Of a DNA stretch of 64,000 bases, positions 24,001-27,000 are shown piece after piece. The position numbers were made by a program. Every line of letters starts with the position of its first letter. Position 1 is the stretch's first letter. The stretch lies in NCBI RefSeq assembly GCF_013167455.1, contig NZ_CP038328.1, one strand, 5' to 3'. This DNA is from Escherichia coli O157:H7. GTDB taxonomy: Bacteria > Pseudomonadota > Gammaproteobacteria > Enterobacterales > Enterobacteriaceae.

Positions 24001-27000
24001 GCTTTGTACTGCTTGCCAAATAACCACAGTTCATCAATCAGCGTCCCCACGGACTTGATACCGGATACCGTATTCGGATCGGCAGCCACCACCTTCAGGG
24101 TGGTGTCCGTCACCCTGTGGGTGATGGTCCGGATATGTGTCTGCACCTGACAGAGGTCATCCAGATCATCGTCCCGTCGTACCATATCCCTGGCAGGGTT
24201 GAAGGCGTTAGCCGCCACCTCCACGGTCGGGGCCAGAATGGTGTAGCCCGCCGCCTGCCGCCAGTTCAGTAACAGCGCCGTCATCATGATCCCGGCAGCC
24301 AGCGTGGACTTGCTGTTTTTCTTGGGGATAAGGATAAAAACTTCCTTGATATGGCGTACACCGGTCTGCGCATCGTAGGAGCCAAACAGGGCCGCCACCA
24401 GGTCAAACACCCACTGTGCGCAGGACTCCCCGAACGTCGGGCTGCCCGGTGCATCCACAATCCGCAGTTGTTTAAAAATCGCCAGGGCATGTGCGGCCTG
24501 CTCCGGATAAATCGGAGCCGGAATAATCGACAGCCCCTTTTTCAGGCGCTCTGCCCAGTCCGGGCAGGCCGTGCTCCACACAGGTATCATCCGTTGCCCT
24601 CATTATCATTATTCACCACCAGGCGGGGTGGTGGTGGCACCGCAAAACGGTTAGCCGCTTTTTTCGCCGCGTCACCTTTTGCCGATTTTTTACCGGCATC
24701 CCCTTTTTTGTGGTGCGTGAACTGCGCCAGCTTATAAGCCGCATCCAGCGCCAGCCTGGGGTCGGTATTAATGTTCTCCACCAGGATCCGCCCCATGGCT
24801 TTCACCGGATCGGGAAGACCATCCTCCATATATTCAATACCAGGAGACATCACCGCGGACGGTGGCATCTCCAGATTGTTTTCGTCCGGCTGTGGTATTG
24901 CAGCCGCCTCACGGCGACGGGGTTTATCCTCCTGCTCTGATTTTTTCTGCCGGTAAACAGGAACCTCATCCACCTCCACCGTCTCGCATTGTTTACGGGC
25001 TATAAACGCAAGCACCTCCGGATCTTTTGCCAGCTGCGAGCCTTTAACCCTGGCGGTCTTCGCCGAATAACCGGCGGCAATGGCTGACGCTATTTTGTTT
25101 TTCCCGGACATGAGCGCCAGCGCAAATTTTCGTTTTTGCGTTGTCAGCACAGCCTCCTCCCGGGTCCAGAACGCACTCAGCCGGGTATGGTTCAGCCCAT
25201 TTTTCCCGGCATCTCATGCCGCAAATGTTAACTGCTGCCTGGTTAACATTTGCTGAAAAAGCCTGTTAACATTTTTTCCGCACAACAAACTGAATAATAA
25301 AGATAAAAACCGCAAAAATGCCCGGGCAGCCAGTTAACATGTTAACTGCCCTGAAACGGGAATTTTTTCTCTGCGTGAGAGGGGGCGCGGTGTCCAGGGC
25401 GATCGTTTTTTTTCGCCGGATGATCCCCCCCGGGTCTGGTCACAGGCCAGTGATTCCGTCGGCCCTGAGCGTGCCATCAGGAAGCTCAGGCAACGTCGGA
25501 TCAGGCATACCACTCGCCGCTTCACTCGCTGACTTCTGGCGATGGCATTCAGTACAGAGGGTCCAGAGGTTCGTCTCCTCATTACCACCACCGAACTGAA
25601 GTGCAATGCGGTGATCGAGTTCACTGTCACAAAGGTCAACCACGCGTCTACAGAGACAACAGTGTCCGGCATCCCTCCGCCAGATACGACGTTTGAGGGA
25701 AACCCGGGCACTGCCACTGACACGACGCTGTTCCCCCCTCAGGACATTTATCCGCCGGGTGTTCAGAGTTTTGATTCTGCCCGGTAACGTACGAAGCACA
25801 GCCATGTAAAATCCTCGCCATATAGCTTGTCACCAGAGGAAAGAAAATGTCATCGAAAAACCGGCCCCGCAGAACCACAATCCGCAATATCCGTTTCCCC
25901 AATCACATGATTGAACAGATCAATATCGCCCTTGAACATAAAGGTTCCGGTAACTTTTCAGCGTGGGTTATTGAAGCCTGCAGAAGAAGGCTGTCAACAG
26001 AGCGTTCGGGTATGAATTACATAATTAAGTAACATGGTGTTCACAGAACACACAGTTACCGGACACATCAGTTTTCCATTCGTCCCCCGGCAGTACAGGC
26101 TTCCCGTCTGACGGGATAGCCTGAAAAAACACAGAAAATTATTTGTTATAATTAATATAACTTACTCAAAAAAAAGCGACGAGAAAATCAGCATCAACGA
26201 GCAATAAGCGCCAATACGTGATAACAAATGGCAGCCATATTTATCTGCAGTATAAGCAATGGACAGGATAACCACACCAGAAACCGTCAGCATAAAATCC
26301 ATTTGAACTTCCCCGGACAAAATCGACTCATCTAAAGATTTACAGCTCTTTTTATTATCAATATGTTAAAAGTAAAATAAACAGATGTTCAATAATACGA
26401 ATACAAAAACGTGCTGAAAATCAATGAATCCATTTCTGTGTTATCAATTAATAGTGATAAACATCCGGCTTCTTCCACCATCGCACCGGACCAGCGACCA
26501 TGAGGGGACAACGCCGCGCTCCGTTAACGCGGTAAACCCCGGTGTGTATCGTTTTTGATTATCCCCGCACACTCGCGCAGAGGATTCTCCCGGTCGGGCT
26601 GCGGTCTCTGTTAATGCAGGAATACGGCGACAATACCGCGCATGAATAATAAGGTCGCTCAACACACTGGCTGTAATGCAGCGGATACCATGCGGCATTT
26701 AGCGGCATTCATCGTACACTCAACGGTTAGCTCTTCATTCGTGGCATTCACCTGAAAGGTCCTGGAGTGTAATTGCGTACATTTACCACTGAACGAACCT
26801 TCAACAAGAACACGACCACGCTGCAAAATACGGAACGGAATTGTTCCCTGAAAAGGCTTTACGGTTACCAATAATTTCTTCATGCATTCTCCGAATAACA
26901 AAAATACTAGTTAATACACTGAGTGCGGATATATTCCTGAAGCATTCTCAATGCTGCCTGGTCGCTGATGATTCCGTCTCTGATACCGAGAACGTTTCGT

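Follow-up and report, generated by a model that had tools for sequence, protein, structure and literature searches.

The window analysed here is the whole 64,000-nucleotide stretch of DNA from Escherichia coli O157:H7 (contig NZ_CP038328.1), which corresponds to prophage Sp6 in reverse orientation relative to strain Sakai. Within it lies an AT-rich island carrying a small minus-strand open reading frame (ORF), ECs1538, with the packaging module (TerL, TerS and an HNH endonuclease) on one side and the lysis module (Rz and lysozyme) on the other. Coordinates were converted to those of Sakai by taking the window position as 1587273 minus the NC_002695.1 coordinate, and the segment 25800-26900 was found to have 100% identity to many E. 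coli O157:H7 chromosomes, TW14359 and EC4115 among them. The original prediction had placed the island in surroundings of ~55% GC. The GC content of 26100-26460 is 33.2%, as against 52.3% for 25000-26000, 51.8% for 26500-27500 and 50.3% for the whole window, so that the contrast stands and the figure given for the surroundings was slightly high for the right flank. Equally AT-rich windows of 361 nt make up 4.8% of all such windows and occur mostly in the espN/espX7 effector region (1733-8318). The features of the island and its right-hand border are as follows.

26002-26463, no strand: mosaic moron cassette of ~460 bp corresponding to the AT-rich island, delimited by homology breaks against prophages with other cargo
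26162-26302, minus strand: ORF ECs1538 (WP_000347013.1, RefSeq annotation), 46 aa, MDFMLTVSGVVILSIAYTADKYGCHLLSRIGAYCSLMLIFSSLFFE, a predicted inner-membrane two-helix hairpin
26308-26314, minus strand: Shine-Dalgarno (SD)-like GGGGAAG, 5 nt before the ATG
26168-26175, minus strand: homopolymer of eight T residues (T8) at the ORF's 3' end; the overlapping stops TGAGTAA come after it (from allele comparison)
26096-26123, no strand: 28-nt hairpin CAGGCTTCCCGTCTGACGGGATAGCCTG, with the palindrome TCCCGTCTGACGGGA as its core, folding as a 6+6 bp stem
26464-26643, no strand: conserved junction block, the right boundary of the cargo slot

The ORF is present as had been predicted, with 46 codons running from an ATG at 26302-26300 to a TAA at 26164-26162 and GGGGAAG 5 nt from the ATG, and the palindrome expected near 26100 was found at 26102-26116. 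An ORF caller extends the frame to an upstream TTG (26320); the RefSeq annotation uses the ATG form. In Sakai and EDL933 the SD sequence reads GAGGAAG, which is stronger than the GGGGAAG of the window (the difference is at 26312), and in two viral contigs (L108, L110) the start codon is GTG in place of ATG; these start and SD variants keep the initiation signals. An SD sequence 4 bp upstream of ECs1538 (dG -3.6) was also predicted in S4 Table of Hücker et al. (2017; PMC5597208). The T-run is polymorphic (T8, T9 or T10) in both allele lineages, giving C-termini ending in ...FFE, ...FF and ...FLSKLY, with the T10 form on record for 207 contigs; as the stops overlap, changes in the length of the run alter the last residues only.

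The observation is real, but the ORF is not new as a candidate gene, since it has been annotated from the Sakai genome onwards as ECs1538 (NP_309565.1) and served as a control among translated short genes in a 2017 study. It appears as WP_000347013.1, "hypothetical protein", in TW14359, EDL933 and non-O157 annotations made by the Prokaryotic Genome Annotation Pipeline (PGAP), and the exact protein occurs on at least 1000 contigs, every time as "hypothetical protein [Escherichia coli]". Literature searches for the gene, its protein and the loci beside it gave no match in paper text. The finding reported here is not the discovery of a gene, and ECs1538 belongs to no described family.

The limits of the island were drawn from prophages that hold other genes in the same interval. 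In one contig (L011) with a near-identical HNH/TerS backbone and a 108-aa TonB-family gene instead (L011:2025-2351, minus strand), homology to the window ends at ~26001 and resumes at 26464. In a DLP12-like prophage (L010) with iss between ylcI and rzpD (L010:2865-3158, plus strand), homology stops at 25981 and starts again at 26457, the flanks of iss being homologous to 25847-25981 and 26457-26642 of the window. The variable unit is therefore ~26002-26463, which has a GC content of 35.9% and takes in the final ~10 codons of ynfO together with the hairpin, the ORF and a promoter/leader region. In E. coli K-12 the same interval is occupied by borD-ybcV-ybcW (DLP12) and by ydfO-gnsB-ynfN-cspI (Qin), and no homologue of ECs1538 was found in these two prophages. 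The suggestion that this is the slot where lambdoid phages carry morons such as bor was thus borne out, as the same flanks hold iss/bor or a TonB-family gene elsewhere, and the comparison among related prophages that had been proposed as a check showed cargo being swapped between conserved flanks.

On the left of the cassette, ynfO adjoins it on both terminase backbones, and the conserved N-terminal part of ynfO makes up the left recombination boundary. On the right, the junction block resembles a fixed recombination boundary for the Rz-cos cargo slot. Of 5426 complete E. coli genomes, 3003 contain a match to its first ~90 nt, with as many as 10 such places in one genome and different cassettes alongside. 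A part of the block (26527-26625) matches K-12 DLP12 between borD and ybcV. Two pairs of inverted repeats (26128-26137/26433-26442 and 26142-26156/26447-26461) were considered as the ends of a mobile element and rejected, the pairs being not collinear and absent from the SHP24 allele.

At an identity of at least 95%, the island was found in 733 of the 5426 complete E. coli genomes, to which a single ~80% copy in SHP24 can be added; the ORF stays open in the 79.5%-identical copy. Two phage records contain the island, and a plasmid search gave no match to it. In IMG/VR, 94 contigs carry a 24-mer of the upstream region and 94 (in a separate scan) a 25-mer of the ORF; the two lists largely coincide, and ORF and promoter region therefore travel together. 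Recurrence of this kind, with the frame open in the diverged copy, goes beyond chance. The cassette occurs on lambda-Nu1-type packaging backbones (the majority), on the HK97-type HNH and TerS backbone (as in the window) and on a deletion derivative, in which it is joined to the middle of an HK97-type terS with loss of ynfO, HNH and cos (L014:3141-3280, L015:362-715). This loss, seen in a few contigs, points to a defective prophage in which the small ORF is still intact.

Outside Escherichia, a peptide-pattern scan of one genome per species across 100,044 species returned a single locus, on a 7.7-kb contig (JAIJJM010000092.1) of a 'Collinsella sp.' metagenome-assembled genome. Its ORF is 100% identical to that of E. 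coli, and the contig is probably a misbinned E. coli prophage contig. Two protein searches, a full HMMER profile search over 1.84 billion representatives and a word-indexed one of 5.8 billion proteins, returned nothing other than the protein's own cluster with its fragments, and three long repeat proteins that are spurious matches. On these searches ECs1538 is apparently an orphan restricted to Escherichia prophages.

Three alleles of the ORF can be distinguished. Relative to the O157 type, the second (L014, P0007/P0021) is 89% identical and the third (SHP24, P0034-36) 71% identical. Between the O157 and SHP24 alleles, nucleotide identity varies along the cassette as listed below.

26464-26643: junction block, 97.9% (beside ~80% for the cassette)
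26429-26463: intervening segment, 62.9%
26339-26428: promoter/leader block, 87.8%, no indels
26303-26338: intervening segment, 66.7%
26162-26302: ORF, 80.9%
3' flank of the ORF: 56.8%, 11 gapped columns
26096-26123: hairpin, 42.9%

Within the cassette it is the 90-nt upstream promoter/leader block that is most highly conserved. The ORF itself is conserved across the alleles and in the 733 genomes, and the lack of conservation that had been named as refuting it was not found. The O157 and SHP24 alleles differ at 25 of 135 aligned coding bases, 12 of these differences being synonymous and 13 non-synonymous (Nei-Gojobori omega of 0.28; Fisher's test on sites, p = 0.004). Of the six frames, the annotated one alone is open in both alleles, the replacements are conservative (V/I, S/A, F/L, M/I) and the change in hydropathy is small (simulation P = 0.03). 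Indels within the ORF are confined to the terminal T-run. Taken together, the signal of coding selection is real but modest.

Expression of the locus can be judged from published strand-resolved RNA-seq and ribosome profiling of uninduced Sakai (Hücker et al., 2017; PMC5597208), in which ECs1538 belongs to the controls, the 250 shortest annotated genes whose ribosome coverage value (RCV) is at least 0.25. In lysogeny broth (LB), its RNA reached 57.6 reads per kilobase per million (RPKM) and its footprints 26.1 RPKM, with an RCV of 0.46 and coverage of 0.98 (S2 Table of that study); the corresponding values were 32.7, 7.3, 0.23 and 0.81 in brain heart infusion (BHI) and 2.1, 0.6, 0.29 and 0.13 under cold/salt stress. 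The same data give, for LB, RNA and footprints of 10.1 and 6.7 RPKM for ECs1536 and of 3.0 and 2.1 RPKM for ECs1537, both upstream on the same strand, and of 8.4 and 8.4 RPKM for the holin ECs1530; the convergent ynfO (ECs1539) stands at 45.6 RPKM. RNA of ECs1538 in the uninduced lysogen is thus ~6-fold above that of ECs1536 and of the holin. The step-up from 3-10 to 57.6 RPKM implies a promoter between 26444 and 26303, matching the conserved block, and a strong promoter but no terminator was predicted for ECs1538 in S4 Table of the same study. Promoter-like sequences were found at the following positions.

26420-26415 and 26397-26392, minus strand: candidate sigma-70 promoter TTTTCA-17-TATTAT from a promoter scan; the -10 reads GATAAT in SHP24
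26392-26387 and 26368-26363, minus strand: candidate sigma-70 promoter TTGAAC-18-TAACAT from a promoter scan
26339-26367, plus strand: promoter-like TTTACA-17-TATGTT from a promoter scan, facing away from the ORF
26144-26152, plus strand: perfect extended -10 TGTTATAAT from a motif search, a candidate antisense start

The minus-strand sites are common to all three alleles, and the plus-strand TTTACA site is kept in L014 and in part in SHP24 (ATTACA). The extended -10 is confined to the O157-type allele, being deleted in L014 and degenerate in SHP24.

Two 'novel genes' of the 2017 study, XECs147 (26158-25997) and XECs148 (26132-26028), both on the minus strand, lie inside the 3' untranslated region (UTR) of ECs1538 and span the hairpin, with RNA of 38-50 RPKM and RCVs of 0.37-0.52 (PMC5597208). 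They are probably UTR signal and not genes. Their RNA indicates that the transcript passes the hairpin and enters the 3' end of ynfO (XECs147 extends to 25997). The 28-nt hairpin occurs once in the window, where none would be expected by chance, and is not conserved between alleles (50% identity with L014, besides the value for SHP24 above). It was not called in a terminator scan, and on the ORF strand its U-run precedes the stem. It was rejected as an intrinsic terminator given the lack of a U-tract after the stem, its poor conservation and the RNA that reads through it.

With respect to the translation signal, whose absence had been put forward as a refutation, the published footprints cover 98% of the ORF, but the ratio over the 3' UTR is similar, so that they are not decisive. 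This bears on a different account of the island, which holds that the functional element is RNA or DNA, that is, a regulatory RNA, a transcript modulating ynfO, or an AT-rich promoter or recombination boundary, and that the ORF is incidental. Such an account would fit the roughly equal footprint/RNA ratio on ORF and 3' UTR, the overlap of the transcript with the 3' end of ynfO, the modest coding selection and the finding that the best-conserved segment is non-coding (87.8% as against 80.9% for the ORF). The leader also has A-rich ARN-like repeats, AAUAAAAAGAGC, of the kind that Hfq binds (PMC4104026). Against it, the annotated frame alone has stayed open over ~20% nucleotide divergence, with M1, the SD sequence, the stop arrangement and the hydrophobicity kept, and the structure predicted for the peptide is a confident one. 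Rfam gave no match, neither strand is significantly structured, ECs1538 goes unmentioned in the Hfq-crosslinking supplement, and conservation is lowest in the 3' region, where any pairing with ynfO would take place. A functional RNA or DNA element in place of a peptide is rated as unlikely. The searches concerned were made with Rfam 15 over 25000-28000 at E <= 10, where only chance-level matches far below gathering scores were seen, and by RNA folding, which gave z = -1.65 for the putative mRNA and z = -0.45 for the plus-strand RNA. Known prophage small RNAs (EcOnc, AgvB and AsxR of Tree et al., and Pas) were considered and set aside, as they are located near Q/PR' and the holin, and the supplement lists nothing at the coordinates of the island.

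For the peptide, AlphaFold2 run on a four-sequence alignment predicts a helix-turn-helix hairpin with helices at residues 2-21 and 25-44 and a predicted local distance difference test (pLDDT) score of 89.5. PredictProtein output in S9 of PMC5597208 likewise places it in the inner membrane with two transmembrane helices. The charged residues K21, H25 and R29 are grouped at the turn. By the positive-inside rule, basic loops of membrane proteins lie on the cytoplasmic side, from which the loop is predicted to be cytoplasmic and both termini periplasmic. A small-xxx-small motif, G31-x3-S35 (A35 in SHP24), is conserved and could serve helix packing with a partner. Methionine is invariant at positions 1 and 4 (MDFM/MGLM), and C24, the sole early cysteine, follows KYG and gives way to tyrosine in two alleles. 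Neither a signal peptide nor a lipobox was found, the N-terminus MDFM being without a basic n-region. Searches with the peptide of Pfam (E <= 1), NCBIfam and PHROGs gave no match, the defence-protein models of PADLOC-DB gave 0 families at E <= 1, and a PDB sequence profile search together with Foldseek using the AlphaFold2 model returned generic helical hairpins only (E > 1).

The explanation that we favour, and hold to be probable though far from secure, is that the island is a moron expressed in the lysogen that encodes a small inner-membrane peptide. Several properties of a moron were found, namely optional presence between conserved flanking genes (iss, a TonB-family gene or nothing comparable elsewhere), a distinct base composition (33-36% as against ~52% GC), and expression in the repressed prophage from what appears to be its own promoter, whose position is inferred. 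On this explanation, the island is an optional and horizontally exchanged cassette of ~460 bp, located between Rz and cos of lambdoid prophages (Sp6 in this case). It would bring an AT-rich sigma-70 promoter and leader of its own (~26339-26428) together with a single gene, ECs1538, which is transcribed in the repressed prophage. Because ECs1538 is co-directional with the late operon, Q-antiterminated read-through should transcribe it in lytic growth as well. Its stable product would be a two-helix inner-membrane hairpin of 45-46 residues, with the basic loop probably cytoplasmic and the ends probably periplasmic. By analogy with most characterised small membrane proteins and with the envelope-directed cargo of the slot (Bor/Iss, TonB-like), the peptide most likely would bind a larger membrane protein or perturb the membrane to the benefit of the lysogen, possible benefits being exclusion of superinfecting phage or modification of the envelope.

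Several observations weigh against a lysogen-expressed peptide moron. When 25 substitutions were simulated with matched transition bias, 13 or fewer amino acid changes without a stop arose with P = 0.14; the O157 and L014 alleles differ by 5 non-synonymous changes and 1 synonymous change; and the selection signal leans on one divergent allele. The RCV of 0.46 is low, short annotated genes averaging 1.55 (PMC5597208), and since XECs147 and XECs148 have a ratio like that of ECs1538, the footprint ratio fails to separate the ORF from an untranslated tail. Part of the RNA in the uninduced culture could come from a spontaneously induced subpopulation. There is also no hairpin with a U-tract 3' of the ORF; for want of this recognisable intrinsic (factor-independent) terminator, the promoter-gene-terminator anatomy of a moron is incomplete. 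Finally, with no family, defence-system or structural match and no homologue beyond Escherichia prophages, there is no functional lead.

The closest parallel is the lambda bor/iss moron. Bor is expressed from the repressed prophage. The likeness lies in the slot, which holds iss in L010 and borD in DLP12, in the optional nature of the cargo and in lysogen expression, which for ECs1538 is taken from published RNA-seq (PMC5597208). Sequence relationship is lacking, however, the PF06291 profile not being matched by ECs1538 (Pfam, E <= 1), and Bor and Iss are outer-membrane lipoproteins of ~97 aa with a lipobox, whereas ECs1538 is a predicted inner-membrane hairpin of 46 aa. In addition, bor is oriented against the late operon, with which ECs1538 is co-directional.

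Another phage counterpart is HK97 gp15, an inner-membrane superinfection-exclusion moron that is expressed from the prophage and located in the tail region. ECs1538 may be likened to it as a lysogen-expressed moron encoding a small predicted inner-membrane protein in an HK97-like/lambdoid Escherichia phage; it differs in position and has no similarity to any PHROG. Among chromosomal proteins, AcrZ, MgrB, MgtS and SafA are small membrane regulators, mostly with a single transmembrane helix. ECs1538 is of similar size (up to ~50 aa), is predicted to reside in the inner membrane and has a small-xxx-small motif; it shows no homology to them, has two helices and is carried by a phage, whereas they belong to the core genome.

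The extended -10 facing into the ORF and the conserved leader raise the question of a type I toxin-antitoxin-like or abortive-infection module, in which a membrane-damaging ECs1538 would be restrained by an antisense RNA or by its leader, and which would serve to stabilise the prophage or to kill infected cells. As in the type I toxins (hok/sok at 36097-36271 being the example in this prophage), there is a small, hydrophobic, membrane-directed prophage ORF of fewer than 60 aa, an untranslated leader that is conserved above the ORF, as at hok-type loci, and, in one allele, a possible antisense promoter, TGTTATAAT (26144-26152, plus strand), whose RNA would be antisense to the ORF over its full length. 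A weak hairpin over the SD sequence and start codon in the minimum free energy fold and the low ribosome load per transcript (RCV 0.46) also fit. Yet this antisense -10 is lost in L014 and degenerate in SHP24, both of which keep the ORF, and the motif is no commoner than chance, TGNTATAAT occurring once in the 64-kb window where 1.9 occurrences would be expected. No antitoxin RNA was detected here with Rfam, though the genuine sok of the same prophage was, and no Hok/Gef or other toxin family was matched in Pfam, NCBIfam or PADLOC. The structure of the mRNA is ordinary (z = -1.65), and the ORF is covered by ribosomes in healthy growing cells. Hok, TisB, Ibs, Ldr and Zor are unlike ECs1538, which has two helices instead of one and is without a cationic tail. 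We regard a toxin or abortive-infection module as quite improbable. A bolder proposal, to which a low probability is likewise given, is that ECs1538 represents an undescribed, Escherichia-only family of prophage two-helix peptides (~13% of complete E. coli genomes), acting as a toxin-like/abortive-infection or superinfection-exclusion effector whose output would be set post-transcriptionally through the conserved A/U-rich leader, by small RNA and Hfq or by a plus-strand antisense RNA.

The position of ECs1538 directly downstream of Rz/Rz1 and its orientation with the late operon suggest a further possibility, that of an accessory lysis protein extending the S-R-Rz/Rz1 set, a late small membrane protein that would tune holin timing in an antiholin-like manner or aid disruption. 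Like the class II holins and pinholins (S21, and the prophage's own ECs1530), ECs1538 has two predicted transmembrane helices, lies beside lysis genes and has methionines at positions 1 and 4, the invariant M1 and M4 loosely recalling the holin dual-start motif. It is, however, 46 aa long as compared with ~68-71 aa, gives no match to PF04971 or any other Pfam holin, and ends in ...SSLFF(E), without the charged C-terminal tail typical of holins. It is moreover optional, swapping with cargo not concerned with lysis (iss, a TonB-like gene), appears to have its own conserved promoter, and in uninduced cells exceeds the holin and ECs1536 in RNA by the ~6-fold noted above, in a prophage that already has a class II holin. 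A role in lysis is therefore considered very unlikely.

The analysis shows that ECs1538 forms a self-contained, lysogen-expressed cassette, found on two phage backbones and in ~1 in 7 complete E. coli genomes. This makes a function in lysogenic conversion or phage exclusion a reasonable proposition. The host is a pathogen whose prophage cargo matters clinically. The overall gain in knowledge is modest. The locus also illustrates cleanly how the cargo of the Rz-cos slot (iss/bor, a TonB-like gene, ECs1538) is exchanged between fixed junctions. Should the peptide be inert or untranslated, the finding would reduce to a well-documented AT-rich promoter island.

The neighbouring genes of the packaging and lysis modules in the window are as follows; the antirepressor and the class II holin (ECs1530) are also on the minus strand, farther right with the lysis genes.

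22929-24590, minus strand: TerL, packaging module
24587-25150, minus strand: TerS, packaging module
25440-25805, minus strand: HNH endonuclease, packaging module
25847-26032, plus strand: ynfO/ylcI (DUF3950), 61 aa, convergent left neighbour of the cassette (Pfam PF13132, E=9e-20; NCBIfam NF041551)
26907-27374, minus strand: Rz/Rz1, lysis module
28368-28901, minus strand: lysozyme, lysis module

The annotation of the left neighbour is inconsistent. In the current Sakai RefSeq record (NC_002695.2), ECs_1539 is a 29-aa ORF opposite in strand to ynfO (L009:16476-16565, compared with window 25847-26032), and the same locus is given as a YlcI/YnfO protein in PGAP annotations of other strains and in the original 61-aa ECs1539. 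On the right of the cassette, ECs1536 (26659-26883, minus strand; 74 aa) matches only positions 100-172 of the 291-position phrog_2571, and ECs1537 (26444-26662, minus strand), which has hardly any RNA or footprints (3.0/2.1 RPKM), is gone from the current RefSeq annotation. Elsewhere in the window, Rfam matches at gathering level were obtained for sok (36097-36271, minus strand), which adjoins the annotated mokC/hokC, for STnc100 (32307-32473, minus strand) and for sar (10100-10166, plus strand). The largest AT-rich tract of the window is 1733-8318, with a GC minimum of 24%, and coordinate conversion equates it with espN and espX7, type III secretion system effector genes that lie at the end of Sp6.

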